A stretch of DNA of 64,000 nucleotides from Sphagnum compactum (Eukaryota), in the NCBI GenBank assembly GCA_965153455.1, contig OZ234494.1, positions 7,564,001-7,628,000 on the forward strand. The letters are read 5' to 3'. Of this stretch, positions 963 through 58,985 are shown piece after piece. Position 1 is the stretch's first letter. The number at the start of each line of letters is the position of its first letter. A model generated the notes under the pieces. The model was not told the origin of the DNA. It ran no database searches and saw only the letters and a program-made list of their open reading frames with translations. Position numbers and translations under genes: made by a program.

Positions 963-3692
963 ATGTCGGCCTCCAAGGTTGCTGTTTTCTGGAACCATCC
1001 AGCAGGACCCAAAACCAGTGAGCCCCTTTTGTCGTCCATGGCTCTCTGTCCGTCAGTTCCTCGGCGTGGTGTTGCCCTAAGTTTCTGTGTTGTGCTGTGT
1101 TGTCTTGAATTCTATTGGAGGGTGTTTGATGCGTTTGGCTTGCGGTTTTGGCGAGAACCGCAGTTGCTTTGACTCTTTCTTCTACCCTCTTTCCTGGAAG
1201 CTGTAACCTAGTCTTTTACGGTTTGAGCCCCCTTTGTAAGATCGCGTGAGGAAAATCTAAGCAGAAAAGATGAAAAGATGTGATGAAAGGATGAAACACT
1301 TGGATCATATTTTTGACATTCTTAATGAAAGAAGATTGCTTTGGCAACAAGTGAGCCACCGGCATCGGTACACCCTACAGCTTCTCATATGAGCAAATGT
1401 GAAGCAGCTATGCTAGCTGGGAAGAGGGAAGAATCTTGCTGTATGTGCCACTCAAGTTGATACGGTCTTTTTGTGTGTTTGTTCAATCTTCTTTGGAATG
1501 GACCAAAAGAACCAAAACCCTGCACCTGTAGAATGGAGAGTAACTTGTGGAGAGGAACTTTTGATACTGTTGTATTACCAAAAGTTTGCTGTGACTAACT
1601 CTTCATGAAAGCAACTGGTTGCTTCTTCAATGTCAACTCGTATGAGCTTATTATCTTGTAATTTTTTTTAGGTTGAGAATGAGAGAGGGATGAGGTTGGG
1701 TTGCAACAAGGAATGGTGTTCATATGTTTTCTCTTTTCCTTTTCATTGTGATGTGCAGTTCATTTCTGGGCTCCAACTTTCAAGTGGGGAATTTCTATTG
1801 CCAATGTTGCTGACTTCTCCAAGCCACCTGACAAGATCTCATACCCTCAGCAAATTGGTATGTAAGATTTAACCCTCAAAAGTGTAGGGCTATTTCCATG
1901 GTTTTGAGGTTCCAGGAGTCCCTCAGAAACATTTGCACTTGCTAAATATAGTAGTAGACCACAAGATGTGCATTGAATGGTGAAGATTTGCAACTTTTGA
2001 TTTAGATTCCACATCAGTTCACTGTAGTTAGGGAAAGTGTTGTATTTTCTAGAAATCATGTTTATCCTTGTGCATTAACAAGCCTTGATAAGGGATTTGT
2101 AGGTTGCTCATCTTTCAGAAGTTGCACTCACACACCATTTTTCCTCCAAAAGTATGGCAACCTTGGAGGCACACTTTACTACAGGACAGCAGCAGATATT
2201 AGTGTGACATCAATTTTATCTGACGACTTCTCTAGTTGCTATGCTTCATTGACCATTCCTGTCTGAGGGCTGTTGGCAGTTTTGAGCAGTCAACATAGAC
2301 CTGGTTATAAACTTTAAAAAGCCCAGGGATGGGGACTTTTGTTGGATAAAGCAGGCTACTCCTGCACAGAAGATTATGTTCAGCTAAGAGGCTGACCCCA
2401 ATTTCTGTCTGTCTGGTGCACCTGAATCCACTGTTGTTTTGCACAATCATATCCAGATATTGAACACAAGGGCCTTATGAGTGGTTTACATTGTCCACAT
2501 GTGGCTTGTGAGATGAGGGAAGACTCACAGAATTATCTGGTGTCTTTGCATGTAACAGCTGTAACAGCTACAGGTCTCATCTGGTCTCGCTACAGCACAG
2601 TAATCACACCAGTATGTCAGCATCCACCTCTCTCCAATTGATTCTATAGATAGCCAGTTTCTTCTTGAGTTGAATGAAGCTGTGGTTGTTGCTGGTGCTT
2701 TAGATGTAGGGTACAGGTTCTCACAGCTTCATCCTGTGCCAATCAACTATCTGTTAGCTCTGATGTAGCCTCTCAAGCTCCAATGCTGCATCTACCATTG
2801 CACCAGGAATCAAGCCCGGTGCATCCTGGTTAAACACACTATCACAACTGTATAATGGAAAAGTACCCAACATGACTCTCTTACAAAAGAGTATCTGTCC
2901 CATGGTGGTTCTTTTCTTCTGAGTATGTGCTACAATAGTTGGTATATGCTCCATGATGTCAGCTGGTACCGTTTGTTTGTTTCTAGATTTCTTCTTTATG
3001 GAGAGTTGAATCCATTGAACCACTATGTGCAGAAAAATTGGAACCTATTTAGCGTGAATGTAGCAATGGCAGCAACAGGGCTCTATCAGCTCTCACGTAA
3101 AATCAGGTAGGACTCCTTACATGTTCTTTGTCTGGTTTCTCACAAAGAAAGCTTTCATATTCCATCCCCTCTGTAATCTCAAGCACTGTTCTCTTCACAT
3201 GCACTAAGCCCTGAAGCTTGCTCTAGATTGCTATGGGCAAGAGATGAACAACTATTCTTTACATTAAACATGGTATCTTGTCAAAATTCGGTTACTTCCC
3301 CTTGGGATCAGGGCAACAAAATTAGCATCATTCCTCACGGTTCATCTTGAAGGTTTCAAAGATGCTTGAAAAAAAGTCAAAATACTTTTCCTCAGTTCCA
3401 TAGTTTGCTGACCATGTGAAGAGAGTCATCTTGGGACTGTGAGTTTTGCATATTTTCTTAGCAAAACTCTGCAAAGTTCAATTTATTTTTTACAGCCACT
3501 TGGAGTTGTACTTGAACCTTTTTTTGCCTATGTGAAGATTTTGATGTTGTCTTCAGCTTTCTAAATTGTTTTGGTGTAAGTCCTCATAGGGCTATGAAGT
3601 GGTTGTGGAAGTTCTTAGGGCATGCAACTAATGAAGTTCTTGGTCAATGGTTTTGCAGCCAAGACTACTCTGGCACACTCAACAAGGTTTGA
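963..3692 (+). CDS. MPC2: Mitochondrial pyruvate carrier, MPC2-type, 104 aa, 5 exons
   Basis: Exons 963-1017, 1759-1857, 2559-2611, 3033-3106 and 3659-3692, all GT-AG with consistent phase. Spliced protein MSASKVAVFWNHPAGPKTIHFWAPTFKWGISIANVADFSKPPDKISYPQQIAVTATGLIWSRYSTVITPKNWNLFSVNVAMAATGLYQLSRKISQDYSGTLNKV carries the hallmark HPAGPKTIHFWAP and IWSRYS..ITPKNW motifs. Confidence 0.95.
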
Positions 3693-5105
3693 ATGGAAAT
3701 CACTAGATTGGCTTACACCATGTGTATGTTGTTGGTCCTGGTTCCAAAAGTCAGGCATAAGCTGCAAAAGAAAAAGTCACTAGTGCTCGACATTCTTGGG
3801 TATGCATATGTGAACGTCACCATGAATAATAAAATGTTGTCTTTATACTTTGGGATGGTGAAAACTATTTATTTCTCTTTGATCCTGCAGGTTGATGTGT
3901 AGATGGTGAATGTCATCCAGAATGTTCTGGCTTTTCAAGGTGTAAAGTATCATATCAGGCAAGTAGGAAGGTACTAAAAGTAGGAGTGTCCTTGTTACTC
4001 TCTGTTACAGTTCCTGTTGGTGCATTTGTGCTTTTGGGTGCTTTCTCTTTGTAGGATGATGGTCTTCTCTTTTTTAACCTCTATTTCCCCTTTGGGATGG
4101 GTGTTTGTTCTTTATTTAAGTTTGGCAGGGTTTCATGTGGACACATTATACAACAGATAACACATTTCCTGCCATATAGTGTATTTTACTGCACCATATG
4201 TTTCAAAAGCCTGGTCTAGTAGTTGCAACTAAGTACCTCCAAGACCAATCTGTGGTGTGTCTGCCATCAATTTTTCCTACAAGGTTTCATTTCTACACCT
4301 GGTTCTAATACTTGCAACTCATAGCAATGCACCTTTGGAACCAGAATGTGGTGTTAGTAATTTCACCATGAGACATCACATTGTCCAAAATTTGGTCATG
4401 ACATGTGCATACTGCTTGTGTTATTGAAGTTAATGGAATAATGAAAGCAGCAACTTGTTTCATACAGCTGGGACTGATGTCACCCATGATAACAACTTAA
4501 AATTGATATTGGAGACAACATACAGCAAGATTTTCTTCTAACCTGCATCAGTTTCTACCTAATTTCTTGTGCTCAACTACTTGAGACTATTTTGATTTGT
4601 GGATCACCTTCCTTGGACATCAGCCCATCTCCAAACATAGACGTGAAGATGGATCAACTGGAATATGCACCTACCTAGTAATCCAGTGGGCAGTTTACTA
4701 AGTTTCGTAGGACCATAAAAATTGAAGTGTACTGCTAGATGATTTCTAAGCTATGTAACTCACTGTACAACAAGTGTCGGTTCAAAGCATATCATCAAGC
4801 AAGTAAGGACATCTTGCTGTGATAGTTCCAGATTTCTCAGGATGCTTCAGGCCTGGATGAGTAGGCAACATCTCAAGCTGCTAACACCAGCTAAGAACTT
4901 TTCTTCTGGAGAGATCAACTTCAATGAAGAGAGTATCACTAACAAAATTTTGACATCACTACATACCTCCTTGCTTTGGGTGATCAAAGTCCCTCAAATC
5001 CTGCATGGATATTTGGGGCCTTCTTTATCAGATGGCATGAACTTCTTTTCAAACATTTCATGCGCATGACCTTTTTAATGTGCAAGCAGTAGAGATCTTT
5101 GATGC

Positions 5106-7103
5106 TCATCGGAAATAAGTGGCAGTGGAGGTGTAATCCTTCTTGGGCCCAGTGACAGAATATGAGATCTCCATCTGTGCAATGCTGTTGCCTGAGAAAG
5201 AAAATTGATAGGAAGCATTGTACAGGTCTTTCCCACAGAGGTGTTGACCTGCTGCCCTCCAACCCCCAGACATTTCAATTCCCCCTTTTTCTGTGGCAGA
5301 CGAAGGTTTGGGGGACAGGAATTGAAGAGAATGGAAAGGAGAACCCCTGCTCCCTTGATTTTCAAAAAAGACATCAATCTGGTTGGTGTGTGTGTCATAC
5401 ACATATACATACTTGCGATGTACTCGGAAGTGCTGGCCCTGCTGCATGGAAAGCTCCCCAACCTCAGTGTAGAGGTATTCATGGGACAAGTCAGTGACAG
5501 AGAAGGTTGCTGTCCCCTTAACCTCTCCAGAATTGGCAAAATCTATCCGGTTTTCAATACGTCGATGAAGAGTCCATGAACCAGCCAGTGAGCGGAACAC
5601 TGCATGAGGTACCATCTTACCATCTAAAAACTCCTTACATGCCTTCTCCAGAACTTCCACAGCTTCTTCTGCCACACTTCCTCTACGAAAGTGGGCAGGT
5701 ATAGATATATTGTGTTTCTGATTCCAATCCTTTGAGGGAAGTACATTCAGATCTGCAGCGAAGGTGTCTGCAAAACCTACATAGTCTCCATGTGGAAATT
5801 GGGGCCGTGGAGTTTGACTTTTGATCCATTTCTCAAAGGCAATTCCTTCTTGCTGGACAGACTCTGGTATGGGTGGTAAGTCCCCAGAAAAGATAGCAGC
5901 TGCCCACCTAGCTTGCAATTCCATAACACCAAAAAAGGTTCCCCGATACATCCCCACAAAAGCAGACCCAGGAAGTGAGGGATGGAAGGTGGAACGGTGC
6001 AGAAGGAATGGCACAAATCTGTCAGCAGGGTCAAAGGATAAAGTATCAAGCACATCAGATGAAAGGTAAGGCATGGAAGATTGGAAACCTGTGCAGAAGA
6101 TAATGCAATCAACTTCAGGAATGGTGGTCTGATCTTCCAGGATCACTGTCTGGCCCTGCACCTCTTGCACCTTTCCACGTCGAACCATGATGTGGTTTGA
6201 ACGGACAAGTTCCAGGTATGAATCAGAGATGGCAATAATGGGGGGATCAGTGTCCTGCTGCAAGTTAAGGGCCCCCTGATCACCACACAACTTACGAAAG
6301 TACTGATTTGCTTTTCGATTTTCCTCCTCATTAGGGAAGACCTCCTCACCCTGTGACTGGCGAGTAGAGTGGCGGTAAAGGACTAAGTCTAAAGGAAAGA
6401 AGGGTGTGGAGGCTGAATCAGGGTCGAGGGCAATATAACGTGGAAGAACCCAGAATGGGCGACTGACTATGTTTATCACTTCAGTAGCAAGTGGAGCAAG
6501 ATCCGCTGCCACCTCTGCTGAACTGAATGATGCACCAAGAATCACCACCCGTTTACCTCTAAATCTTTCTGGTGAGCGGTACTCGGAGCTGTGCAAGACT
6601 TCACCAGGAAAGCCATCAAGTCCTTGAATGCTAGGTGTGTAGGGAATGGAGAAGAATCCTGATGCAAACACTACAAAATCAAATATCTGAGATCCTGCTT
6701 TAGATCCCTGATACTTTTGCTCCAAAGATGACCATTGTACAAGCCACTTGTCATTGTTGCTTCTTGAGACATTTGTAACTTCTGACCCAAGACAGAAGTG
6801 AACAGGTTGGAGGAATTTGTTGGCATAAGCTTGAAGGTAGCCATATACATCATGCTGAGAAGGGAATATGGGAGAGTCAGAATCCCATGGGAAGTCAGAA
6901 AAGCAGCATGAATACCGTGAATCGTTGGTTCTTAAAGAGAACCAGCAGGAACTTGATTGAGGGTTCCATACCCCACCAAGATCAGGTCGCTTGTCAAAGA
7001 GAGTAGGGAAAAGACCAACCTCCAGCATGCTCTTGGCAGCCACAAGCCCTGCTGGACCTGCACCAATTATTGCTACCATCTTTCTACCTATCATAGCCTC
7101 CAT
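5106..7103 (-). CDS. Flavin-containing monooxygenase (class B, FMO-like) fused to a C-terminal DUF6314-like domain; intronless CDS, about 665 aa
   Basis: Single open frame. FAD motif IIGAGPAG, FMO fingerprint FPGEVLHSSEYR, second dinucleotide motif ILGASFSS, and IIFCTGF. The C-terminal ~165 aa (5109-5600) has LAGSWTLHRRI, YLYTEVG, HLCGKDLYNASYQF and VTGPKKDYTSTATYFR, typical of DUF6314. Start set at MEAM (7103) because the upstream ORF extension crosses a strong acceptor (ttttctctgcag ending 7192). Confidence 0.9.
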   Translation of the reverse strand: MEAMIGRKMVAIIGAGPAGLVAAKSMLEVGLFPTLFDKRPDLGGVWNPQSSSCWFSLRTNDSRYSCCFSDFPWDSDSPIFPSQHDVYGYLQAYANKFLQPVHFCLGSEVTNVSRSNNDKWLVQWSSLEQKYQGSKAGSQIFDFVVFASGFFSIPYTPSIQGLDGFPGEVLHSSEYRSPERFRGKRVVILGASFSSAEVAADLAPLATEVINIVSRPFWVLPRYIALDPDSASTPFFPLDLVLYRHSTRQSQGEEVFPNEEENRKANQYFRKLCGDQGALNLQQDTDPPIIAISDSYLELVRSNHIMVRRGKVQEVQGQTVILEDQTTIPEVDCIIFCTGFQSSMPYLSSDVLDTLSFDPADRFVPFLLHRSTFHPSLPGSAFVGMYRGTFFGVMELQARWAAAIFSGDLPPIPESVQQEGIAFEKWIKSQTPRPQFPHGDYVGFADTFAADLNVLPSKDWNQKHNISIPAHFRRGSVAEEAVEVLEKACKEFLDGKMVPHAVFRSLAGSWTLHRRIENRIDFANSGEVKGTATFSVTDLSHEYLYTEVGELSMQQGQHFRVHRKYVYVYDTHTNQIDVFFENQGSRGSPFHSLQFLSPKPSSATEKGGIEMSGGWRAAGQHLCGKDLYNASYQFSFSGNSIAQMEISYSVTGPKKDYTSTATYFR

Positions 7104-8159
7104 ATCACCATCTTGGTTCCAAGTTTGGCATGCTGACACGGGTCTTATCTGCTTGCATTCAACAGATGAGCGCAACAAAAATGGGAGTGTCCTGCAGAGA
7201 AAATGCACAAGGCAAGTCAATAATCTGAGACAAATGATCCCCATGAACATAACCAGCGGAATGGGGTATTTCCTGGTCATCATACATTTCACATGATGAG
7301 ATCTTAATGAAGTGCATCCAAAAGAGTCTAGGTTCAGTTACCCCTGAATTCTTCCACAAAGACTGATGCATGCCATTTATAAGCCTGCTTTGCCTTGCTT
7401 CCTTTCTCCCCTTCTTCTTCCTGCTCTCAGCCAACTAAGTGCCCAACTAACACTGATGATACAACAACAATGAAGAATTCCTCGATGATGCAGGGAAGTA
7501 CAGATGTCTGACATACAGATGTATGTTTGACACAGATGGCTTCAATAAATTCTGTCACAAAGCATGCTGAGTTAAAGTATATCACATGTCAAACCATACA
7601 TCAACAATGAATGTATACAACAACATATATCAGCCTGGATCCGCGTGAGACCTACTGATATATAGCTAGGTATACACGATTGAGCATCTCAGTTTTAGGA
7701 CTGCGGAAGAAGCTATTTTGACCATTGCTGCCAGATATCTTGGCTCTCAACTTCCCTAAGAAATGAAATGAGCACCACCTCAAATTTCAGAGGTGCTTGT
7801 TCACTCAAAGGAGAGCAGACATAAAACTGTTACCTGCCTAATGCAACAAACAATTGCGAAATACTCGACGCGGATAAACCCAAACGCTTGAAACCCTAGA
7901 TCGATGCCGCCAACACGCCCCGCCCCCACCCAACATAGAGATCACCATTTCAGTCACACACACAAGAAAACATTCCAACAGATCGGAGCATCCAATCATC
8001 AATTTATGGAATCCTATGGGAAGACGAAATTTGGCAACAACAGACCTTGATGGAAGCGTGGATCACTTGAAGAAATATTCAACAATCCCTCGTCATATTG
8101 TCTTCTTCTTCTTCTTTTTCTTCACAATTGTTGAAGAAGTCAAAAACCCATCACTCCAG

Positions 8160-8170
8160 TTTTTATATAC
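8160..8170 (-). promoter_or_regulatory. Putative TATA box of the FMO-DUF6314 gene
   Basis: Minus-strand GTATATAAAAA about 1.05 kb upstream of the FMO ATG, followed by a (GAA)n-rich leader-like tract and later splice-like signals. Confidence 0.4.
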
Positions 8171-8423
8171 CTCGTACAAGAACGAGCTCCTGGTGGATAT
8201 CACAAATATGTCAAAATCCAAGACGAAAAAATAACAAGGCATATACTCGAGTCTTTGATGACCAGGCTTGCATCCCACAACTTGCTATCTTTTCATTCCA
8301 TTTTGTATGTTACATTTATCACGTAAAAACGTAAAACCCAGCTTTTTCTAGTGGACACTTTACAAAGCGTACCAAGCCTTCCGGCATCCAGGTATCATGA
8401 GGAAAATAAATTTTAATAGACCC

Positions 8424-11400
8424 ATGGAGGGATGTCGTAGGCCATAAGCCAAATGTCTTTAGGCATTAAGCCACAAGTCTTAGGCCTTAAGTCAAATGTC
8501 CTGAGACCTAAACCAAATCTCATTGGCCATTCACAAAAAGTCCACTGTAACACCTTAAGCCAATTGTCTTAAGCCATTTGACACACCCTTTCTCACTTGT
8601 TCCACACGCCATGTCAAGCTTCTCTTGTGTCCCCTCCTTTAGTTCCCAATTACCTGCACACCCCACTACACATTTGGTTAGTCTCAAAGTCTTGACCCCT
8701 CAAGATGACTCAAACTCTCTACTTAGATTTGTCAGACTTTGCTATCAAAATTAAGTCCTAGTCTAACTCGGAGCCAGCCTTGGGCTCGACTCCCAAAGCT
8801 GACCCAAATAGGCCCTTAGAACCGGGTCAACTCCAAGTTGCCCCGGGCCTTCCTGTAACCAACTCCTGGAATCGGTCCAAAGAAGACTTCAACTCGGACA
8901 ATACCAAGTTGTTTCAGGGCTAACCCTCTTTTGGCAGCCTCAGAGCTTGAAACAGACATCTCTTAATCATCCCCATTGTTTTAATGGGCCAACCCAAGGA
9001 GACAACACTTAATTGTCCGTTGAAGGTTTTAACAGACAGTGCCTTGCATTATAATCCCAAGGACAACCCTTAGTCATCCTCTTGGCCAACGAGAGCTTGA
9101 GCTTCTGCTTTAGCCCATCTGGACCCCTAAGTCTGGATGTCACCCGACTCTTAGAGGAGTCGAACCTTATGGAATCATTTTTGGTTTAACACCCATATCA
9201 CCTTAGTGCCCCACTAAGGTGGTCTCATATGAGGCTCGTTGTCACTTAAGACATTTCTTAAGCAGAAAGGCATTCACCCCCACCTTCGGGAGGTTTACAT
9301 TTTCGTAGACACAAATAACATGTCAACCTTGTTATGGCAAGTTCACCTTTTTACCACCCTTATACTTCAAACCTTTTAGAAAGTAGCTAGTTCTCGATTT
9401 AGGTGTAATTTGTATTCCAAACATTTTCTAATAGATGCAGGAGGAATCTTAGACACCTTTCATGTCCATCTTTGTGATAGTTTCTTAAACCACATTAGTA
9501 CCTTTTAAATCCGCTTCTCTTAGCAAACGCCATTTCCCCTTGGGCACCTCAAAACATTTGAGGGTTAAGCTTCATGTCTAGGCTTGTTCTCTTGATGACC
9601 CTAGGCAACCATGAGAGGGTAAGACTATTAAACGTGTTAATAGATAGTGTCGACTTGGGCTTAGCCAAGCCGGGCTCCTTTTACCTTAGAAGGACTCCAT
9701 GCATTGAAAATTTCGTTCCCACAAGCTTATTAATAGTTCGGGGACATGTCATTTAATATGCGCACATGACTACCATAATCTCATAGATTATGCTTAATTG
9801 AGCCATTAGAATTTGTTTTTCAAGTTCAATTCTTTAAGTCTGTTTTTGTTGGCTATTGTCATCTCAACTCAATCTTCATATACTTCTTCTATGGTTCAAA
9901 TTTTTCGTACATCTTGACGACAAACCGACTATCACCTACCTTAGTTTTAGTTTAGATATAGGTTCATTTTTCTAGATTTCGCTTTCACCCCCCACTTTAG
10001 AAGGTTGGGTTTTACTTTGATGTGCTGGATTTTTCTTTATGCATTTTTTTGTTTCCCATATCACGACCCTGCTCCCATTTAAACTTTTCAACCATTTCCA
10101 ACAAGTGGTATAAGTGAGCGAACTTCACTCACTATGACTATTTCAGGTGACATCCTTTCCGCTTGATTAGGTATTGCTTGCTAATTTTTTAAATTTGTTT
10201 TGTGACTAAAATGCATTTTACTTCCTTAGTGTACTTATGGTCAATGAAGTTGAATCTTGGGTGATAGGCTTGTTTTCAATCCTTCCTTTTCTTGTCCTCA
10301 TCAATTGGTTTCAATTTGGACACGTGAAAAGTTGAATGGGCTACTAATCGAATGGGCTAGTTGATAATTGTAAAATATAGACATCCACGCAGGGTTTATG
10401 AATGACCTTATAAGGATTCACATACTTTGGAACAAACCCTTTGCCAAAGTTTTGAGTATTTTAAAATCCTTAATATTTAATCACATGTAACCACATTAAG
10501 TCCCTCAACTCGAACTTTATATGGCTTCATGATTTATTGGCTTGTTTATCATAATTCACCTTTTTCTAAGAGCTTAATGGCTTGTAACTTCTTCTCTTCA
10601 CGATCCTTGGCAATTTTTGTTACATACTTGCTACCTTCACGGTGAGATTCATTTTAGTGGCCGAGCGTTCTGTGGAATTGTAACAAAATTGCACCAATTC
10701 CAAATGGTCGTCCAATCCTTATGATCATTGACGATGAAATTACAGAGGTATTGATTCAATATCCTGTTGAAAGTTTTAAGGGGATAGTGCCTTGCATTAC
10801 AATCCCGAAGACAATCCTTAATCGTCCTTTTGGCCGGTGAAAGCTTGAGCTCCTTCCTTAGCCCATTTGGACCCCTAAGTCCAAATGTCACCTGACTTTT
10901 AGAAGAAGAATTGAATTTTGCAAAGCCATTTCTAGCTTAACACCCATATTGCCTTAGTGCCCCACTAGGGTGATTTCGATATGAGGCCCATTCCGCTTAA
11001 AACACTTCTTAAGCGGAAGGGCATGTCACCATTGTTTAGCCGCAAGAACCTGAAGCCAAATTCTTTTGGTAAAGACATTAAGCCAAAATTCCCTCGAGTG
11101 CATCAAACCAAATGTCTTATAAAAATGTTAAGTCAAAAGTCCCATGAGCACTGTAAACGAAAATGTTATGAACAGCCTTAGCAAAGAACCTTAGACCATA
11201 GGCCCAAAGCCCTATGAACATCCTAAGACAAATATCTTGCAAACATGGTTAGCCCAATGTCCTTGGAACCAATATGAAATAACCCTAGGTCATAAATTTC
11301 AAAAATGAGATAAAAGTCAATCTGGTTAGGCCTAGTGTTAGACCTTAAACCATGAAGTTTAATCCCCAGCCAAAGCACCCTTTGGCTTGGGAATTTTGGC

Positions 11401-11566
11401 CTAGTGTTAGAATATTTTCAAACATATTGGTTTAGGGTTAGAATATTTTTCAACATTTTGGCTTAGGATTAAAATCATTTATGACATCTTGATTCAGGAT
11501 TAGAACATTTTTTGACATCTTGGCCTAGGGTCGATGACTTTGGCCTAATAAAGAGTCACCTCCAGT
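8424..11566. mobile_element. Non-autonomous element built from ~20-bp AAGCCAAATGTC-like tandem repeats, split by the LTR element at 8579-11028
   Basis: The same degenerate repeat (taagccaaatgtc / ttaggcc) occurs at 8440-8578 and 11029-11330, in inverted form at 11330-11550. Loosely complementary ends TGGAGG...TAGGCC (8425) and GGCCTA...CCTCCA (11543-11563). Confidence 0.5.
8579..11028 (-). mobile_element. Internally deleted Ty3/Gypsy chromovirus LTR retrotransposon
   Basis: TG...CA ends with TGACACACCC / GGGCATGTCA inverted termini and a perfect 5-bp TSD CCATT (8574-8578 and 11029-11033). 3' LTR 8579-9276 with PPT at 9277-9285; partial 5' LTR ~10765-11028. Degenerate integrase C-terminus (NRILNQYLCNF..DHKDW; FVPKYVNPYK; HSTFHVSKLKP) and chromodomain remnant (YLIKRKGCH...HLYHLLEMVEKF) at ~10080-10760. 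Confidence 0.88.
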
Positions 11567-11951
11567 ATGGCTCTTTTTGTATTCCATAGTTTTTACACCG
11601 CATAAAGCCCTGGTCCTGGGCAGGGTCTTTTATTCAATTTTATCGAGTAGGTGGACTGACTAATTTGGCTAGAGGTTAAACAATAAAGTAAATTAAAGTT
11701 TTGCAGGGTTTTGATAAAGTAAAATTTCTTGCCTAGTTCTGGCAACCAATAGATAAATATGGGGACCAAGACAGTATGTCATTGTCTAAATATGGGGACA
11801 TGTGACATATGTTTTTCCTCATGATAAAGCAACTTTGACAATTTTTTTCCCCAAAAAAGCCTTTGTTAAATTCACACTGGGTTTTGTTTGTTTGCCACGG
11901 TGCCAAAAATTCGCCAAGAAGAAGAAACACCGGTCCTAGGGCTTTACCTAC

Positions 11952-12287
11952 ACATAACCGGTTGTCGTGGATCATTCTTCCAATTCCCTTGGCAGATTAT
12001 GTGCTATGGAATGGGGCTTGCCCACCCAGGAACGTGGCAGGTGTAGAAAGACAACCCACCATTCCACACTGTTCAGTTATGTGATAACAGTAACGACCTG
12101 GATGTGCTCTAGTGTGTAACCAGTTTATGTGTTCTATTCAAGCACTATTAATTCATTTTTCCTAGGCGGGATAAGCAGTTATCTCCCGGCTACACTTTTT
12201 TTTTTTCCTATCACTGTCAATCTTAATGAATGATCAAGTGAGATATGAGCCTGAAATTTGAAATCTCAACTAAAAAACTGGTTATGT
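11952..12287. mobile_element. MITE-like element with short terminal inverted repeats
   Basis: ACATAACCGGTT (11952-11963) versus AACTGGTTATGT (12276-12287), 11/12 complementary; no coding capacity. Confidence 0.45.
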
Positions 12288-13242
12288 TGTGGAACAGGCC
12301 CTGGCAAAACCTATTTCCACCCAACAAAATGGCAGCTTGCCCTACTAGGCTCACCATCCTCCTGGGCAGAACAAGCCCTATTGGGCCTATTCCATGTACA
12401 TATCCGGTTTCCTAGCTATTGATGCGATTCACATCTCAATCCTGTTCTCCAGGGTCATTTCTCCAGGGTATGCAAAGCACCAGGCTGTTTTTTTAACACT
12501 AGGATGAATCAGATTCACAAAGTGTAATCAGAGGTGGGAGGGAATTTCCGTTTGTTGTCAGGCGTTGCATTTCTTCATCAAGAATTCTGATCCGTCATTG
12601 GGCCTTACAGTTCTTCACTGCGGAGCAATTATTGTGCGAGCTTCAACCTTCAACAATTGTAATCGTTAAAGATCTCAGTAATTCTAGTGAAGCATTATTG
12701 CCAAAACAAGTTGCAATTGGAAGTTGGAAGAGCGAGCTTTGAATTGACTATCTGTCTATATGACATGCAAAATAGACATAGCTAGCGGAAAAGTTCCTTC
12801 ATTTCATGAAAAACTCTTGGATTTGAAATCAAAACTATACCTGGAGCCAGAGAACAGAGTTTTCTCTGGCTACCAAAAATGCTGCATTAGGTTCAACAAC
12901 TGTCATTCATAGAAGCAAGTAGGAACTCAGTCAATTGCACCCCACACAACTATATCCAGGTGGTGAGGATGCACTCCTAGTGTTTCCTTGATAATATGGG
13001 AATTACTACTAAGATCATCCACCATATCCAATTGATACTGTTGTGAGCTGAAAAAGGATGGTCCCCTCTTTGAGACCTCTTGCAGTTCAAACATAATTAC
13101 AATTCTCTTGATGCCTTGGAAAGAGCATGTGTTGAATCACATTGTTTCTGATTGCAAACTACCTACTACCTTAATTGTGCTTTTGCAAATTGTTGCCAGA
13201 ACAAAACCCCAACAGTTTAATTTCCAACTAAGGTAGTTCCAA

Positions 13243-15461
13243 TTATGATTCTTTGGATGCAACCATGTCATCACCTTCTGACAACAAAAGCAGATCAGTT
13301 GCAACACTACCCTCTTGGACAGCTTCCAGCCTTTGTTCTGCCTTTTTATTTGCAAACCTGAGACATAACAGAGCAAAATTTGTGAGTGTCACCAATCTTG
13401 TACAAGTACGATTTTTCATCTTGGGGTGTTGGAATGGAGAAGTAAAATAAAATGCCTATTTCACAGTACATTCCCTTACATGGAGAGAATGGTGACCCAG
13501 ACTATTTCCACGCAATCCACCCACAGAAGACGCTGTTCTACTGGGACTAATCCATATGTCACCAAGTGTGCAAATGGCCACAATTTCCAACCAGCCTGCA
13601 CACATCTGGAGAACAGAAAAATTAGAATTCTTGGTACAGCTGCACAGGAAGGAGACAAGAAAAAAAATTGGATAAATTAACTTGTAGATTTCTCTTGTTT
13701 CTGATGTTCATGGCAACAGGAACCAAAGCTGAGGAGGAGAGTTCACATACACTAAGAAGAGGGAAAAATGTTGCTTTTAAATCTTTCCAAATCCGCACAG
13801 GTGATTCAAACCGCAAAAGTCCCAGCACCACATAGTAAATACTATTCCAGATGGCTGACCAGATTGTTTGATCAAACACCACTTTCAATGGAACCACCCA
13901 CCAGCCCTTGAATGGAAATAGAAACTGCATGGAGAAAGGAATGAATTAATTATCAGAACTTCTTCAAGGGTATTGGCAGCAGACAACCATAGCACTGGAA
14001 AGAAAGAATGACGTGACTAGATGTCATGACATTATCCAAGCCTTTCAGTTGATTCTTTTCTTCAAGATCTGTGAAACTTCACATACCTCACAGACATAAT
14101 AGTAATAGTGTGATAAGGAGCCATGCAGGCAGAATCCGACGAGTCCTGATCTTAGCAACCGAACTCTGTTGAATTCAAGAACAGGTTTCCCCTCCATACA
14201 CTGCAACAGGGAAACACATGCATCACCTTTCAAGTCATACAAGAGGACAAAGACCATGGACAGAGAATCTCTCTATGATGGCTTCTCAGGCTATATGGCA
14301 GTTACTTGCCAAGGCAGCCTCTCGCTGGAGAGCTGCATCGTGTGATTGAAAAGGACAACAAAGTCTGGAGAGCAAGGCGACATTAATTTAAGGAAAAGAA
14401 ATTGTTTAAATACCTGGCCAATCCAATCACCTATGGAGTACACCACTCCACTTATCATCATCTTAGCAATGACAGGATTGCTCTTGAGAACTTCCTCGTA
14501 TGCATTCCAATTGTGCAGAGGTGCGTACTTGAGAATTTCCATAATTGTCCAACCCTGTTCGACAATCATCACACATCGAATATCAGCAGATTATCAGAGA
14601 AATCCAGCTTCAAGAAAAGCTCGTCTGGCATACGTAGCACGCCGCAGAAATTCACAAGCACGAAAAGATCTTCGTCTGCCGTAGTTCAACGGATCAAAGC
14701 TGCAGGGTAGCGGACACACTTACATGCCAGTAATCGTGGTCGACGGTGACGAGTTTCGTGAACGCGAACGACAAAGCAGCCCCAGCTAGGGTAGCATTGA
14801 TGGCCCTGTCCAGGTATCTGTTCTCCTCCTCTTCAGACTTGGCGAACCAGACCAGCTTGGGATGATACATGGGCGGCGCCATCACTTGCACGTCGGCGGT
14901 AACTATCTCCACACCCGACAATTGTTCGCGGACGCCGGAATTGAATCCCCCTACAGGTATTGGCTGCGGCCGCGCTTCATTGAGATCCAAACTCTCGGAC
15001 AGCGAAGCCATAAAACCTTCTTGCACTTGATCGCCAAGCACTGCACCTACAGCATCTATGATCAGCTTCGGGTCTGCCGATTTGGATACAGCACTCAAGA
15101 CCGAAATTCTGCGACGAGGCGCTCCATGAACCAGCTCCACATCCTCTTCTATCCACAAAAGTTTTGCCGCATCATGATCATGATCTCTGCTGCTGCTAGT
15201 AACGGAAGTATTCCCCACTGCAGAAGCCAAATTGCCTCCTTCTGTCCATTGAGCTCTTGGCTGCAAACGTGCACATGAATATCTGGCACACGTATTACTC
15301 GTGCCAATTATTTTTTTGCTGCAAGTTCTGACGGGGCTCACGAACTCTGCAATAACACATTCATGTTTCAGTGCAACACCTCCAAGTTCGCGATTTTTCG
15401 ACAAATTAGTGATACCTGATCTTATTACATGACTGCTTGTTGGATTAATCAAAGCCGCCAT
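13243..15461 (-). CDS. Mpv17/PMP22-family membrane protein with a long N-terminal extension (probable plastid transit peptide), about 465 aa, 6 exons
   Basis: Exons 15461-14724, 14554-14414, 14200-14087, 13924-13751, 13595-13480 and 13357-13243, GT-AG and in phase. Motifs DHDYWHGWT.MEILKYAP.HNW.AYEE, GDWIGQ, HGSLSHYYY, KVVFDQTIWSAIWNS and AGWKLWPFAHLVTYG.VPVEQRLLWVDCVE. Confidence 0.93.
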
Positions 15462-15857
15462 TGCACAGTGTACAGTGCCGTACACTGTTGTTTTATCACG
15501 TCTGGTAATCGTGATCAATGCGCGAGCGAGCTGGGCGGCAATCGAGGACTGTCTCCGCTCAGAACGGCGTGCCGCAAAACAGGAGAACTTCGAACGGGGG
15601 AGTGCGGTGAAGAAGCGTATTCGCAAATTTTTGCATTTATTCTAGAGCGGGTTGTGCGCCACGAGGAGAGCGATCTCTGGCCGTCGATTGAGCCAAGCAG
15701 ACGGACACGATTGCACAAGGCGTCGCCCCCAAATCGTTTTGACTTTTGACACTTGGCGAAAGTCTCCCAAAGTCTAAAAACCTGGTCCAATGATAGTGTG
15801 GATGGGAACCTTTGGGGTCAGGTGACAGCTGTGAGGTGCCCCCAGTGAGAATACAAG

Positions 15858-15865
15858 CCACGTGG
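15858..15865. promoter_or_regulatory. Palindromic G-box/ABRE (CCACGTGG) upstream of the Mpv17/PMP22 gene
   Basis: Perfect GCCACGTGG about 400 bp upstream of the ATG in a GC-richer promoter segment; function not demonstrated. Confidence 0.4.
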
Positions 15866-18800
15866 ACGATGGACTCTGGATTCGGGATCTGGATTCGCCA
15901 GTTGTGCCAAAGTGGAATTTTTGGATTTGCATGTGGATAAAATCACCGTCTGAATACTCAAAAGGCAAATCCCCCCACCCTCATAACCACACGGCAACCG
16001 GCGAAGGCTGTATGAATAGATGCGTTACAAGTGGGCTCTGAGGTGGGCGATTTTATTGTAGCATGGAGAGGACCCAGTAGGGCCCATTACACGAAGAATC
16101 GGCCTTGGCAGTGTTCTGTCAGGTGGTAACAGGTTCTACCAGGGCCCGTTCCAGACTAACCAGTGTTCCTAACCGTTGATCAGATTGGAAGTGGAAATGG
16201 CAAACTGAAAACTGGAACCAGCAGATGACCTCCAGGTTCCCACCTAAGGAAAAACCTTAAAAAGTACCTGAATACCACACCAAAATTGGTTACCTTATCG
16301 TTGGGATACCTCCAGTTTTTTGCAGTAATTGGTTAGAATTTTTTCTAAAGTCATGGTCACAGGTTTGTTGGATCTACCCTGAGGGAACAGATTTCACCTA
16401 TATGAGTGACAACTTGGAGCCCTAAAAGTACTCTCTATGTGTATTTTTTACATGTCGATCCTGGGGTCAAACCCTGGTACCCACATGATATGTGTATTTT
16501 ACATATCAGATTCATTTTGCACTCATTTACTCAACCATATTACACAATTCTATGATCTTTGATGACTGTTTTCCTATCTTCAAACCCTTCCCCTACATAA
16601 AGACCAGCGTGATTTTTTTGGCTAACACAAAAAGTGATAAAATGGGAAAAACAATGTAAATATGCAAAAGATAGAATAGTGAGTTTGAAAACTGTACCTC
16701 CAGAAATGTGGAAGGCCCAGTACAGCGGGGATCCAGCCGGGATCTCAAATCCAGAAGGTCTGTTTTCAGACCCTTCTCCTATACTTAGGCACAGACCTCT
16801 TGCACAAGACTACTAAAACAAATTTGTGGTTAGAAGATCAGCACTTACACCATGCTTGATTTCACACCAACTTGAGAATGGCCAAGTTTTCTCCTAGATA
16901 GTTGGTGTGAAAACAGAGATTTAGTGTGGGTCACGCAAAGAGCAGGTGCCAACTCCAGTCACCTCCCTTCTCTTTTTCAGTGGGATTGCTCAGTATCTAC
17001 TGTTATTCGTTTGCTTTACTGAATCTCATCTTGCAAGCCGAAGTCTCATCTGAATTGCGTCCCTTAGTTACAAACGTCATGTTCTCTTATGCGCTGTCTC
17101 CTTGGCGCACCAGCTCGTTGGCCAACTCTGCCCTTGCTCCAAACTAATCTGTACCTTAAACCAATTAATTCCAGACCTCACAGCGCTTTAAGCCTAAGGC
17201 GTAAAGAGCCCTAGGTAGTAGTGGGCCCTCCTGGAACCTGAACATATCCTATATTACCCACAACGCCTATGTCTTTTTCCAAGCCCTAAACTAAAACCTG
17301 TTGTTTCGCCTCTGGTTCTTTAAGTCAACAGTGGGGCTGAATTTTTGGAAGTGCCCCAACTCCTAGGGCTTTACCCTAAACAAATTTGCACTGGTGGGCG
17401 CTTGTTCACTGTGACCATTATATATGGCCTGAGCTGCGTGTGCCTATGTCATGGCACCAACGACACTGTGCAATACTATGGCCTTTCAAAATAAAGCTTC
17501 ACAGCACCCTGATTTCTGGATGACTTGATTAATATCACAATGGTTGTAGTGGGGGCTAATTGAAGTACAACGTATGTTGCTTGGACAGATGGTGCGTAGA
17601 CTGATGAAGTGATCATGGGATAACATAACATTATCAGCATATATACTTTCCTGGGTATGAAGGTCCCACATGAGTATCCAGGCAACTTGCATAAACAGCT
17701 TCCTAAAGTGTACCTGCAGCAATCACCTCTATGTAGCAGAAGTAGTAAATGATTTTTTTCTTTTTTTCTTTTTTCTTATCCCTTTGTACATTTTCCTAAT
17801 CTGCGGTGTGTCTATCAATAAAGTTTTACAGGGTTGCATCATTTTGACAAGGAGAGTTTGTACTTTGGGCCAGAGCAATTTGACCCACACATTGGGAAGT
17901 TCCCCCAATTCAGCACAATGAAATTGTTGAATGTCAATTTCAATCCCATAAGAACATTGTCTGAGTATGTCGGTTCACTATTTAGTATTTTGTTAAATGT
18001 GTGGGTCCAGAGAGCATGTAACAGATGGAGTGCAATCTTAAAGTAAGGCATTTTAGACTTGACATTTTGAATTATCACTAAACTCTTTTTCATTACATTC
18101 TTGGTTGTTGTTTTGTCTTTTTAATGAAAAATAGATTTTAAAAAAAAAATTAAGCTTCATTGTACATTGTGTTATCTCCAGTATTGACACTATTACTAAA
18201 TATATTAACATAAATATTGGTGTAGGTATACTATAATTAATGATATTGCATAACCATGATAAAATTTCAATAATGTGTAATGTTTATCACAATGATATCA
18301 TAGGTATTGTAATGAATATATATAATGTTTGTACTTAACCTAGGTATGGAGTAAAACATAAGTTTGCATAGGTTTAACAATGTGCAAAAGTCTATAATAA
18401 TTATATTAATGATATTTTAGGCTTTGCAATTCACGTATGAAACACAACCACATGTATTGTTATTGTTTGGAAGTTCCATCATTGGTATTCCATGTCCTTA
18501 TACATTATTTACACGTCTTCATATATATTATGTAACTATTGTTTGGAATTTGTGATTGAACATATGTTGCTTTGTTTAAAACATATGTGTGACTTCCATA
18601 TGCTAAATCTCATTACTCACATGTAAAATTGTGTGTACCTAACATTAATGTAGAGAGTGCACATTTTCTAAGGTTATAAAACATAGATATTGTCAAGGAG
18701 TTTGATAATTTGCATTCAAAGCAACTAGACTTACATCATTGGTATTACCATGTTCATATATACCCACATATTAAGTATTGAACTATGACATAAGAATTGG

Positions 18801-21894: not shown

Positions 21895-22750
21895 AAATTA
21901 GACCCTAAACCCTAGCTGTAATCCTAAAACAAACCTTAAAATCATATAACCCTAAACCCTACAAAACAATTGACACCAAAATTGAAAAATTAGATCTTAA
22001 AGCCTAACCCTAAAATAGACTCTAAAATCCCTAAACCTTAAATGAAGAAATTTAAACCAAAATAAAAAATTTAGATCCTAAACCCTTACCCTAACTCTAG
22101 AATAACAACTAAAATGACTAAACCTTAAACCCTAGATGCAAAAATTGAAATGAAAACAAAACATCAGACCATAAACCTTAACCTTAACCTCTAAACCCTA
22201 AAATAGACCCTAAAAAATTTAAGACCTAAATTGTAGATGAAGAAGTTGGCACCAAAAGCAAAAAGATCAAACCTTAAACCCTAACCTAAAAAAAACCCTA
22301 AAATCAACCCTAAAATCAACCCTAAAATCACTAAACCCTTAACTATAGATGAAAAAATTGACATTGAAAAAGATCAGATCTTAAACCCTAACCATAACCC
22401 TAAAACAACAATTAAAACAACTAAACTTTAACCCTAGATGAAGAAATTGAACCCAAAACAAAAAAAATCAGATGCTAACTATAACTGTAAAACATCAATT
22501 AAAATGACTAAATCTTAAATCCTAGATAGAAATTGACATCAAAATAAAAAAACTCAGATCTTAAATCCTAACCGTAATTCTAAACAACAACTAAAATGGT
22601 TAAACCTTAAACCCTAAATGAAAAAATTGAAACCAAAATAGAAAAATAAACCCTAAAACCTAACCCTAAAACATCAATTAAAATTATTAAACCTTCAACC
22701 CTAGATGAAGAAATTAAAATTAAAACTCAAATCCTAATCCCTAACCTAAA
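21895..22750 (+). repeat. Degenerate tandem array (~80-95 bp units) rich in plant telomere-like CCCTAAA
   Basis: Recurrent AGATCTTAAACCCTAACC...CCCTAGATGAAGAAATTGA units (e.g. near 21990, 22072, 22164, 22375, 22469, 22555); strong C/A strand bias. Confidence 0.8.
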
Positions 22751-23339
22751 GATGAAATAAAAGGCTCACATATAAATTATGCATGGGCTCAAATTGTGGG
22801 GACTATTTGAACCACCAATTCATCAATTTGTACCAAAGTGAAGTTGGTCAAAATCTTGAATAAATGTGGTGTGGCATGCATTGTAGCTAAGATGTTTCAA
22901 ACACCAAGAGTTGGGTCCACGAGTTGTTCTATCTCGTCCCCATCTAAGGTGAATAAAAACAAACATGAGAATTGCAAATAATCATCATAAAATGAAAACT
23001 AACCATGTCCTTTTGATCCATATTCTTCAACATCTCCTCATCATTTGAAATAAAAATAAAGTGATCATTAGTAGAGAAAGAGTCATGACTTTCATTTTGG
23101 GAAGACATCTTTTGGTTTCAAATGAAAGAAAGTGAAATTCCCCCTTAAATAGCTTTCATGGAATCTTAGTTTACATCCTAGAATGTTAAATTCCACCAAA
23201 CTTACATTGAAACCCAATCTTTTGGGTCTAATTTTTTATTTCATCATTTACATACACATAAAGCAAAACCATAAAATTACATTTCTAAACATAAGTTCAT
23301 CATAACTTGATCTATGTTATGCACCCTAACTTCATAACT

Positions 23340-23720
23340 TTAACCCTAATTAAAAGAATCGCTTCAATTTCTATAATTTTACTCTTAATTTATGAACCCA
23401 AACCCTAAAGCTTAAAGAATAAAACCAAAACCCCACAGCCCTAAACCATAACCCAAACCCTAATTCAAAATCCTAACCTAAAAATAAAACTAAAATATTA
23501 AACATAAAGCTTAAAAGCTAAACCCTAAAATTGAAAGTCTTAAGCTAAACCTAAAACTTTAACCCCAAAATTCCAAAAATAAAACACTGAATCTTAAACT
23601 CTAAAAATAACCACACACACAAACCTTAAAATCTAAACCTTAAAAGCAACAAATCCTAAACCCTAAACGCATAAACTATAGCTTATACCATAAAGCCCCA
23701 AAGCCCTATATAGCCACCTA
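23340..23720 (+). repeat. Second telomere-like (CCCTAAA/AACCCTAA) degenerate tract
   Basis: Multiple aaaccctaaa variants in the same orientation as the first array. Confidence 0.7.
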
Positions 23721-24598
23721 GCCCTAGCCCCCATAGCCCCCCTGTCCCTAGGTAACCCAAAAAGGAAAACAAATTGTTTTGATACCCCTTGGGGGGAGTT
23801 CATGCTGAGTTTGGGAAGAGAGTGCCTTGTTTTCATGGCTTTATGGATAACAATGAACAATACATAGGAACAACAAGCGACAGTCAAAGTGGGCCCCAAG
23901 AGGGCACCACTTTATGGATAACTCAATTATGTTATGAATTTGATGTTTTAAGAAAATAGTCAAGTTTTGGAGAGAAAATGTTTTCAGAAAATTTTGCTAC
24001 ACTTGAAACAAATTTAGATTTTGGGGCAGTTTTTCATCAATTTCTACACATTTCATAGAATTTAAAAACTTATCAACAGTTAATGCTACTCTTTTGGGAT
24101 GATGGCTGATACTGCTACATTAGAAAACTGAAAAGAAAATCCAGTGGGTGACAGGCCACTAGACTCTCCGGCTCCTGTCGTAACCAGCAGGCCTTCAGGT
24201 GAAAAGAAACCAACTGATGCTTGCTAGATGAAGACATGGCGACATTTCCTTGCAACCTGGGAGAAATCTTCTGTAGCTGTAAGCTCCCGCCCAATCAGTA
24301 GGAAAATTTCTTTTCAGTAGGGCCAATGATAGTGCTGGTTCCAAGTTCAGGAATCCTTCACTAACCCAGGCTTGACATTATGGATGCGAAGTATGGTAGT
24401 ATTTATGCGTGCAGCCAGCTAACCATGTCTCACGGCTGAAATCAAATGTATATACCAGCAAATTTGATGCAAGGAACCTTTGGAGCTTGTGTTGTTTGTG
24501 CACAAGTTCCTTTATGTGGTTAGCAAGGCTAATGACAACACAAGCTACAAAACACTAATGGTGACTCCTTTCCAAGTTCCTTTATATGGTTCCACGAT

Positions 24599-58106: not shown

Positions 58107-58985
58107 TAGAAAATGCTTGGCAGCTGCTAGGCGTTTTCTGGATTTGAAATCCTAGAAAGCGCTTGGTGGTCGCTAGGCGTTTTCTAGATCAAAATTGATA
58201 GAAAGTGCCTGGTAGTTGCTTGGCATTTTCTGGATGAGAAATCCTAGAAAACGCCTAGTGGCCACTAGGTGTTTTTTGGATCAAAAAGGGTAAAAAATGC
58301 TTAGCAGCCACCATGCGTTTTTAAAATAAAAAATGGTAGAAACCACTAGGCATTTTTTGGATGGGAAATAATAGAAAACGCCTAGCGGCTGCCAGGGGAT
58401 TTCTGGACTGAAATTTCTAAAAAATGTCTGGTAGTCGCCAAATGTTTTCTAGATGGAAAATGCTAAAAAATGCCTGACAATTGCTAAGCATTTTTTGGAT
58501 CCAAAATGCTAGAAAACACCTAGCGGTTGCTAGACATTTTTTAAACCAAAAATGCTAGAAAAATGCATGGTTGCTGCCAGGTGTTTTTTGAATCAGAAAT
58601 GGTGGCCACCGAGAGTTTTTGGGATCGAAAATGGTAGAAAACACTTGGTGGCCACTAAGAGTTTTCTGGATCTGCAATTTTAGAAAAGGCCTTGATGCAA
58701 CAAGGCGTTTTTTAGATCAAAAATCATAGAAAACGACTACCAAGTGTTCTCTTGGTTATAAATCGTAGAAAATGCCTAACATCCATCAGGTGTTTTTTGG
58801 ATTGAAAATCATAGAAAACACATGGTGGCCACCAAATGCTTTATGGATCAAAGAAAAGTGAGAATTGAAAAGAACGTTTCTACACAGTTAGCTTGGACAT
58901 AAAAATGCCTAACGGCTACATGGCATTTCGACGCATTGGTATTGGGTGTAGAAACACATGGTGACCACCAAGTGTTTTTGTGCAA
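58107..58985. repeat. Tandem array of 46-bp units, each with a ~32-bp palindrome
   Basis: Unit starts at 58107, 58153, 58199 and 58245 (period 46); about 19 degenerate copies. My reconstructed consensus is TAGAAAACGCCTRGCGGCCGCYAGGCGTTTTCTGGATCAAAAATCC. Confidence 0.9.

Follow-up and report, generated by a model that had tools for sequence, protein, structure and literature searches.

The closest described relatives of the gene treated here are the members of the 'S-Ox-like 2' family of flavin-containing monooxygenases (FMOs), for which two genes were reported in Sphagnum fallax, each encoding a class B FMO followed by a C-terminal beta-barrel (Christensen & Neilson, Plant J 2026, PMC13557801; preprint 10.1101/2025.09.16.676513). 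According to that article, a survey of 78 plant and algal genomes found the family in S. fallax alone, and the journal version adds PhycoCosm matches in charophytes and chlorophytes; a fungal contribution was suggested from the top BLAST match (Botryobasidium, 42.42%), and horizontal gene transfer (HGT) from fungi was kept open. The gene analysed in this work is found in a stretch of 64,000 nucleotides from Sphagnum compactum (assembly GCA_965153455.1, contig OZ234494.1, positions 7,564,001 to 7,628,000 of the forward strand), from here on the window, in which the minus-strand span 5106-7103 translates to 665 amino acids plus a stop codon (protein P0001, whose residue numbers are used below). 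We take this gene to be a member of S-Ox-like 2 by its description, i.e., a Sphagnum FMO with a C-terminal barrel and a Botryobasidium match of approximately 42-43%, and not by gene identifiers. An earlier note, made from the sequence of the window, had proposed that it is a microbial-type gene that a bryophyte acquired horizontally. The analysis points instead, by a modest measure, to the descent of the bryophyte copy from a green-lineage ancestor and its loss in most land plants, and not to a recent fungal or bacterial import; the class B FMO and the DUF6314 domain form an old two-part module.

As the earlier note had it, the FMO and the C-terminal domain are encoded in one uninterrupted frame, and the product is a non-canonical plant FMO with an additional DUF6314 domain. 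The Pfam family FMO-like (PF00743) was detected with an E-value of 2.9e-53 (181.6 bits, cut-off 22) and DUF6314 (PF19834) over its full profile (positions 1-131 of 131) with an E-value of 9.5e-30 (104.2 bits, cut-off 23.1). The FAD motif GAGPAG (residues 14-19; 7047-7064, minus strand) follows the GxGxxG pattern, and FCTGF (residues 336-340) corresponds to the FATGY-type motif that joins the NADPH and FAD domains. The FMO-identifying motif FPGEVLHSSEY (residues 165-175; 6579-6611, minus strand) aligns with FKGQYFHSRQY of the ancestral mammalian FMO2 structure 6sem, and its H171 is at least 90% conserved in an alignment of 12 green-lineage rows. At the NADPH site, G190-A-S-F-S194-S-A aligns with G-I-G-N-S-A-S (GxGxS) of 6sem; S194 is invariant in the green alignment, and the strict pattern G.[GS]..[GA] is unmatched. 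Both the GxGxxG FAD motif and a GxxxSG/A variant of the NADPH site have been described for FMOs (PMC13557801), and the GxxxS form of the window protein fits this variant. The best solved relatives are FMOs, with E-values from 1e-42 to 1e-27.

The distribution of the fusion was examined with an exhaustive phmmer search of 1.84 billion cluster representatives, which returned 872 proteins at E <=1e-30; when the 290 proteins collected at that stage were screened with a custom DUF6314 hidden Markov model (HMM), 132 proved to carry the domain. Among 30 proteins looked up by cluster, the named members with both domains come from Gonium, Closterium, Pleodorina, Chlamydomonas incerta, Volvox africanus, Adineta ricciae, Laccaria and Thelocarpon, and the match tables also name Calypogeia fissa (four proteins, 54-61% identity), Botryobasidium, Hydnum, Hebeloma, Jaapia, Trematosphaeria, Adineta vaga and Mesostigma. 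In the green lineage, the fusion is therefore represented in the liverwort Calypogeia, in Closterium (Zygnematophyceae), in the four Volvocales Gonium, Pleodorina, C. incerta and V. africanus, and in Mesostigma; at 50% identity or more, only Sphagnum and Calypogeia were found. No other named group contributes as many fusions as fungi, which also provide the best named non-plant match (Botryobasidium botryosum, 43% identity, 99% query coverage); Closterium (45%) and Gonium (48%) reach the scores of the fungi. Among metagenomic sequences, one protein (P0032) shows a reversed fusion with DUF6314 before the FMO. In the 727-residue protein of Elasticomyces (P0167), DUF6314 is also N-terminal, and there is no record of an FMO Pfam domain.

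For the phylogenetic analysis, redundant Sphagnum and Laccaria cluster members, fragments shorter than 430 residues and one protein without an FMO domain were dropped from the 290 proteins, giving 244 rows for FastTree, from which 66 and then 41 rows were chosen that cover every DUF-bearing clade together with bacterial relatives. The 41-row tree, obtained under LG+C20+F+G4 by posterior mean site frequencies (PMSF; support is given as ultrafast bootstrap/SH-aLRT), places a split with 100/99 support between the 7 bacterial rows and the 34 eukaryote-type fusions. The latter form six lineages: bryophytes (100/100), Closterium and a relative (100/99), Volvocales (100/100), fungi (100/99), the pair P0172 and P0021 (94/94), and a group of rotifers, Mesostigma and others (90/88). 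The two bdelloid rotifer copies (A. vaga P0010 and A. ricciae P0173) are placed inside a 100/100 clade of metagenomic sequences, and from this position they are candidates for a gene transfer into rotifers.

A recent transfer into Sphagnum, from a fungus (a Botryobasidium-like Agaricomycete) or from a bacterium, would agree with the best named non-plant match and with the abundance of the fusion in fungi, and its fungal version has been suggested in print from the top BLAST match (PMC13557801). Nevertheless, approximately unbiased (AU) tests speak clearly against the fungal version. On the 66 rows, five groups (bryophytes, the Closterium clade, Volvocales, fungi and the remaining sequences) were compared in all of their 15 arrangements; the three trees with bryophytes as sister to fungi were rejected (p-AU 0.007, ~0 and ~0), and the three trees with a green clade were not (p-AU 0.49, 0.13 and 0.53). 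On the 41 rows, the bryophyte clade was grafted on 15 branches with IQ-TREE; a position inside fungi costs 55 units of log-likelihood (lnL; p-AU 3e-6), and a position as sister to fungi has a p-AU of 0.035. The bacterial sequences are split off with the high support given above, the liverwort carries a homologue at 54-61% identity, the synonymous divergence (dS) between the two Sphagnum paralogues reaches 0.69, and Closterium and Gonium score level with the fungi. Bryophytes are thus neither nested in nor sister to a supported fungal or bacterial donor clade, and a recent import is very improbable. With homologues in algae and in a liverwort, bacteria standing apart and fungal placements rejected, the horizontal acquisition proposed in the earlier note is not supported. 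The same note had reasoned that homologues of the same architecture following the species tree would indicate vertical descent; such homologues are present in green algae and bryophytes, and the trees neither demonstrate nor refute that they follow the species tree.

Seven placements of the bryophyte clade on the 41-row tree were not rejected, some of them at deeper positions. Among these, bryophytes as sister to Volvocales has a p-AU of 0.50 and the top share of resampled (RELL) likelihoods (0.38), and bryophytes as sister to the Closterium clade has a p-AU of 0.38; a constrained search that kept bryophytes, the Closterium clade and Volvocales together ended at just 0.62 lnL below the best tree. 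Vertical descent with losses is the simplest account. A quick 66-row tree that joined bryophytes and algae (SH-aLRT 89) was discarded as a poor optimum, given that a constrained search reached a tree 17 lnL better, in which the uniting branch had zero length.

Several observations weigh against descent within the green lineage. The mutual order of the six eukaryotic lineages is unresolved, and the best-scoring arrangements of both the 66-row and the 41-row tests keep the green lineages apart; in these tests the subtrees were fixed and the groups were named after the trees had been seen, and many alignment rows fail the composition test. The protein of Mesostigma viride (P0086), which has 973 residues and long insertions, groups with a metagenomic set (98/94) apart from the other green sequences, either as a long-branch artefact or as the outcome of a separate history. 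Among land plants, the gene was found only in Sphagnum and Calypogeia, so that vertical descent requires several losses; word-index searches with the DUF region (7 matches) and with the green alignment brought almost no further named plants, but they also missed algal homologues that phmmer had found, and therefore the absence elsewhere is weakly supported. Finally, the coding of both domains on a single exon is unusual beside intron-rich neighbours and would also fit an old transfer.

These points bear on a second possibility, less probable than green-lineage descent though a substantial one, in which an ancient transfer brought the gene into the ancestor of mosses and liverworts (or into Sphagnum and Calypogeia separately, or into one of the two with passage from there to the other), the donor being an alga, an early fungus not represented in the sampling or some other microbial eukaryote, and the 5' introns were gained later. 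Such a transfer would account for the patchy distribution in land plants, with S. fallax alone among the 78 genomes of the published survey (PMC13557801), for the presence of both domains on one exon in both paralogues, and for green sequences that do not form one supported clade, with Mesostigma placed elsewhere; the presence of the fusion in bdelloid rotifers indicates that the family can cross lineages. It has against it that no donor clade is identified, with bryophytes nested in none of the sampled groups, that the tree uniting bryophytes with the Closterium clade and Volvocales lies so close to the best one, and that in GC content (0.43-0.45) the gene region resembles other genic parts of the window. 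Descent from a green-lineage ancestor is accordingly the reading that we retain.

The age of the module is also suggested by its bacterial counterparts. When prokaryotes were scanned with the bacterial-type fusions as query, each species being represented by one genome, 26 loci were obtained, and analysis of their open reading frames (ORFs) showed that an FMO is paired with DUF6314, adjacent or fused, in at least 15 of them; several of the remaining 11 are cut by contig ends. A fused ORF is present in 3 loci (Alphaproteobacteria, Rhodopila), separate ORFs in the order FMO and DUF6314 in 7 (Telmatospirillum, Micavibrio, Chlamydiota, Pseudobdellovibrionaceae and others), the opposite order in 3 (Chlamydiales and two Verrucomicrobia), and frame-overlapping genes in 2 (Allokutzneria and an alphaproteobacterial metagenome-assembled genome). 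Four bacterial proteins that appeared in the trees as FMO-only are the FMO halves of such pairs. The earlier note's view of DUF6314 as a domain that exists on its own in bacteria and has been joined to FMOs in fungi and certain bacteria was borne out. The pairing is old and recurrent, and this 'Rosetta stone' pattern, which occurs in both orders, is the strongest clue that both parts serve one task. Inspection of the genes flanking the pairs in 12 loci revealed no conserved pathway context; in two related loci (L029 and L030) a divergent nitroreductase-family gene is found beside the pair, with UvrB downstream, an arrangement absent from the other ten. No NCBIfam model matched the bacterial DUF6314 partner that was tested, and when the complex of a bacterial FMO (L026/P0043) and the DUF6314 protein beside it was predicted without our alignments, the score was 0.00, which is evidence neither way.

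The DUF6314 domain shows a set of strongly conserved residues. The H-x-C-x2-D motif that the earlier note had singled out is present in the window protein as HLCGKD (residues 621-626) and is kept in 80-82 of 93 non-redundant eukaryote and metagenome domains and in 15 of 15 bacterial domains. Residues W510, R514, Y545, E547, Y565, Y567, H621, C623, D626, Y628, K655 and Y657 each recur in 79-92 of the 93 domains and in 13-15 of the 15 bacterial ones. The window protein also has all of W510, R514, Y545, E547, H621, C623, D626, Y628 and the C-terminal GP-K-D-Y motif, each kept in 79-92 of the 93; of these 13 positions, 10 are kept in all 15 bacterial domains, Y545 and Y657 in 14, and D656 in 10.

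AlphaFold2 models were obtained for the whole protein (12-row alignment; mean predicted local distance difference test, pLDDT, 83.9; predicted template modelling score, pTM, 0.85) and for the C-terminal 197 residues (50-row alignment; pLDDT 92), and the latter shows two helices (residues 476-505) followed by ten antiparallel strands. Residues 480-665 match no solved chain by sequence. A comparison of the model with 48,161 chains by VIA-align gave as the top match the lyase CpeS (4tq2; Z 13.7, root-mean-square deviation 2.8, 143 residues), followed at Z 11.3-13.2 by a designed barrel, DUF3598 (12.5), BFA1 (12.4), OlmO (12.4), Rv2717c (12.3) and nitrobindins (11.3-11.5); Foldseek found the same fold class with TM-scores of 0.43-0.50. 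The domain is thus predicted to be a ten-stranded calycin-type barrel similar to nitrobindin and CpeS. The predicted fold is alike to those of CpeS (4tq2), DUF3598 (2o62), BFA1 (5yvf), the spirocyclase OlmO (7sfn), Rv2717c (2fr2) and nitrobindin (3ia8/3wjb), with deviations of 2.8-3.7 over 126-143 residues; however, sequence identity to the matched barrels is 7-13%, and therefore this is an assignment of fold class and not of family, fold likeness alone indicating neither a function nor a common ligand. An atlas search with the barrel alone gave scores of 0.87-0.88 to clusters of stand-alone fungal DUF6314 proteins, which are leads only.

From the motifs and the models, a mechanism can be proposed. 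The N-terminal domain would bind FAD, NADPH would reduce it, and reaction with O2 would give the C4a-hydroperoxyflavin, whose target would be a soft nucleophile (S or N) in a small molecule; oxygenation at N or S is also the reaction of the nearest solved relatives. By analogy, an NADPH- and O2-dependent oxygenation of a substrate is what the window protein may catalyse. The barrel would pack against the FMO domain and hold the substrate or the product, or perform a follow-up step, and for this it would use its conserved polar pocket (R514, Y545, E547, Y565/567, H621, C623, D626, Y628, K655 and Y657). One of these roles is the most likely for a barrel whose predicted structure combines a conserved polar pocket with a His/Cys/Asp cluster at a hairpin. 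Against this proposal, no substrate, barrel cofactor or inter-domain contact was observed, and the protein matches no NCBIfam equivalog, falling far short of the models for trimethylamine monooxygenase (103.1 bits, cut-off 675) and ArsO (97.1 bits, cut-off 425).

The barrel might alternatively be a cofactor-binding redox or sensor module, with heme as in nitrobindin or a metal at the His/Cys/Asp cluster as the leading option, or a domain for stabilisation or oligomerisation. Nitrobindin-type barrels are indeed among the best fold matches, and the conserved His, Cys and Asp are residue types that often bind metal or heme; nevertheless, ligand-handling enzymes and lyases (CpeS, OlmO) match at equal or higher Z, and at least ten conserved polar or aromatic residues besides these three suggest a pocket and not a single ligand site. 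These alternative roles together are rather unlikely. A broader and equally tentative conjecture is that FMO and DUF6314 constitute an obligate two-component enzyme system from bacteria to bryophytes, in which the H-x-C-x2-D pocket would be a second active or cofactor site that captures and converts what the FMO has oxygenated, or else serves to present a thiol or a metal-bound substrate, the two Sphagnum copies serving for a lineage-specific metabolite.

The structure of the gene was established from stranded polyA RNA-seq of the same species label (run X24) and from metatranscriptome contigs (X15 and X16, apparently two filings of a single data set), and its features are given in the following table.

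Features of the FMO-DUF6314 gene and of its neighbours in the window
Feature	Position	Strand	Basis or remark
3' untranslated region (UTR), approximate	4300..5105	-	RNA depth drops between 4273 and 4806
Main coding exon	5106..7191	-	whole FMO + DUF6314 + stop codon (5106-5108); 5' end = splice acceptor
DUF6314 domain, residues 506-665	5109..5588	-	Pfam, AlphaFold2 models, fold searches
H621-L-C623-G-K-D626 motif, hairpin between predicted strands 7 and 8	5226..5243	-	motif reading, AlphaFold2 strand limits
Class B FMO domain, residues 8-457 of P0001	5733..7082	-	Pfam, motifs, alignment to 6sem
Intron 3, 150 nt, GT..AG, phase 2, in codon 12 of the coding sequence	7192..7341	-	RNA joints and base reading
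Upstream exon	7342..7551	-	5' UTR + annotated start ATG 7376-7374
5' UTR intron 2, 282 nt	7552..7833	-	joint 7551>7834: 14 X24 reads, also X15/X16 contigs
5' UTR intron 1, 150 nt, ends +/-1	about 7896..8045	-	joint 7894>8045 (cut +1): 14 X24 reads, also X15/X16 contigs
MPC (mitochondrial pyruvate carrier) gene, convergent neighbour, >=4 introns	1017..3726 (part seen)	+	RNA joints, profile match
Mpv17/PMP22 exon, upstream of the FMO gene	13479..13676	-	profile 21-62 of 62, E 1e-12

The uninterrupted minus-strand frame extends over 5106..7283 (725 codons counted from the first ATG), and the methionine at 7103 is an internal residue of the annotated model. The acceptor AG of the main exon is read at 7193-7192, and the joint 7190>7341 (cut +1) is supported by 35 reads of X24 as well as by the X15/X16 contigs. 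The upstream exon encodes MACISLCGRIQ and two bases of codon 12, in agreement with the N-terminus of the 706-residue Sphagnum proteins P0126 and P0129; the annotated protein begins MACISLCGRIQG, followed by TLPFLL..., and its first 12 residues are absent from the long frame. The gene was described in the earlier note as intronless; this has to be corrected, since polyA RNA-seq reveals three GT..AG introns at its 5' end. With these 5' introns, one of them within codon 12, both the gene and its coding sequence are spliced, and only the part that codes for the domains is a single 2.1-kb exon. The RNA-seq check that the same note had called for was favourable, with spliced transcripts of the expected strand at a depth of 28-47 across the coding exon, and 2-13 for the MPC neighbour (values from the fraction of the run that was read). 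A minor RNA joint at 5905-6087 (minus strand) skips 181 nt within the FMO coding region and shifts the frame; with 4 reads against a depth of ~47, this joint probably reflects noise in splicing or else a non-productive isoform.

The orthologues of the gene are CY35_02G049700 in S. magellanicum and BDL97_02G048800 in S. fallax, S. troendelagicum falls in the same 90%-identity cluster, and identity to the named Sphagnum proteins is 96-98%. The window gene is one of two paralogues: a second Sphagnum cluster, at 71% identity, corresponds to BDL97_08G012900 on chromosome 8, and both domains lie on a single exon in both paralogues. The ratio of nonsynonymous to synonymous divergence (dN/dS, Nei-Gojobori counts) is 0.31-0.33 against orthologous contigs, with 30 differences each, and 0.22-0.23 against the paralogue (dS 0.69 and dN 0.157), where constraint is alike in both parts (FMO 0.22, DUF 0.24); among orthologues, the DUF part alone has merely 7 differences, and its ratio is uninformative. 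The dN/dS check thus shows that the gene is under purifying selection, and a pseudogene or retro-copy is ruled out by expression, splicing and a dN/dS well below 1. The S. fallax paralogue (P0144) has an N-terminal extension of ~140 residues, rich in Ser, Thr and Arg and absent from the window copy, that may be an organelle-targeting signal. The paralogue loci (L005-L012) match the window only in the coding region (77% nucleotide identity over 5098-7084), and their flanks differ. The S. fallax model of BDL97_02G048800 (P0134, 679 residues) diverges from the others after approximately residue 564 of P0001 and retains only the first 72 positions of the custom 165-position DUF6314 HMM, which looks like an alternative or mis-predicted 3' end.

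The two neighbouring genes are split by introns, as had been noted, according to the RNA joints of the MPC gene (1017>1759, 1856>2558, 2611>3033 and 3103>3656), whose exon pieces cover consecutive positions 45-65 and 66-89 of the MPC profile, and to the exon match of Mpv17/PMP22. A contaminant or mis-assembly, i.e., a microbial gene misplaced in the moss assembly, would find favour only in the microbe-like architecture and in the coding of the domains on one exon, and its probability is negligible. The gene has spliceosomal introns and polyA RNA, a single DNA contig of 6,718 bases from a second organism label covers window positions 1802-8500 and joins the FMO gene to the MPC gene, two metagenome contigs (L003 and L004) are collinear with positions 1109-10343 at 93-95% identity, and the annotations of three named Sphagnum species place the gene on chromosome-scale scaffolds. 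Contamination, which the earlier note had named as a possible source of error, is therefore excluded, and this is a bona fide nuclear gene of Sphagnum.

Other parts of the window showed further features. The Mpv17/PMP22 region (8545-16000) has zero RNA depth in X24, unlike the FMO and MPC genes. Almost no DNA contigs of the second organism label (X7) match the intergenic stretch 8545-11200, which lies upstream of the FMO gene and aligns in L004 as rearranged or duplicated pieces of 77-88% identity; it is probably a variable, repeat-derived region. Positions 22001-24000 (GC skew -0.32 with AT skew +0.25) and 58001-62000 (GC skew +0.21 to +0.29) are low in GC and skewed, and probably are repeats or transposon remnants.

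Compared with the published account of S-Ox-like 2, the gene annotation, the family, the C-terminal barrel and the idea of fungal HGT are already in print, and what is added here is the distribution over the green lineage with the liverwort, the AU tests, the bacterial pairing, and the fold prediction and motif of DUF6314. In the main text of that article the barrel is unnamed (the term 'DUF' does not occur), and the article presents neither liverwort copies nor bacterial gene pairs (PMC13557801); our literature search found no paper that mentions DUF6314 or PF19834. The article also states that S-Ox-like 2 lacks the central His of the FMO-identifying motif (PMC13557801), in contrast with the window protein, which retains it in FPGEVLHSSEY. 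The suggestion of fungal HGT rests on a top BLAST match and fails the topology tests, which matters for lists of HGT genes thought to have aided the move of plants to land. Another group of plant class B FMOs with an additional domain of small-molecule type, the 'Seedless' FMOs, differs in that this domain is SnoaL-like and N-terminal, and in belonging to a different FMO clade (PMC13557801).

Canonical FMOs, such as mammalian FMO1-5, the ancestral proteins 6sem, 7al4 and 6se3, garlic AsFMO1 (6wpu), the Schizosaccharomyces pombe FMO (2gv8) and the bacterial trimethylamine monooxygenases, have fold and motifs in common with the window protein, and presumably also the NADPH/FAD/O2 chemistry; however, they have no barrel, and their match is partial (best E 1.9e-42). 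The fungal DUF6314 FMOs (Botryobasidium BOTBODRAFT_59266, Laccaria LACBIDRAFT_313976, Hebeloma, Hydnum and Jaapia) have the same domain order and length, with 32-43% identity over 97-99% of the query, but form a separate clade (100/99), and the literature search found no characterised member. The bacterial pairs and fusions (Alphaproteobacteria, Chlamydiota, Verrucomicrobiota, Pseudobdellovibrionaceae and Allokutzneria) carry the H-x-C-x2-D-x-Y and GP-K-D-Y motifs of the window protein, although they are mostly two genes, in either order, and their FMO halves fall outside the eukaryote-type clade; such a pair would be an easy entry point to the chemistry. From bacteria through fungi, rotifers and algae to bryophytes, the FMO is tied to the DUF6314 barrel, by adjacency or by fusion and in either order.

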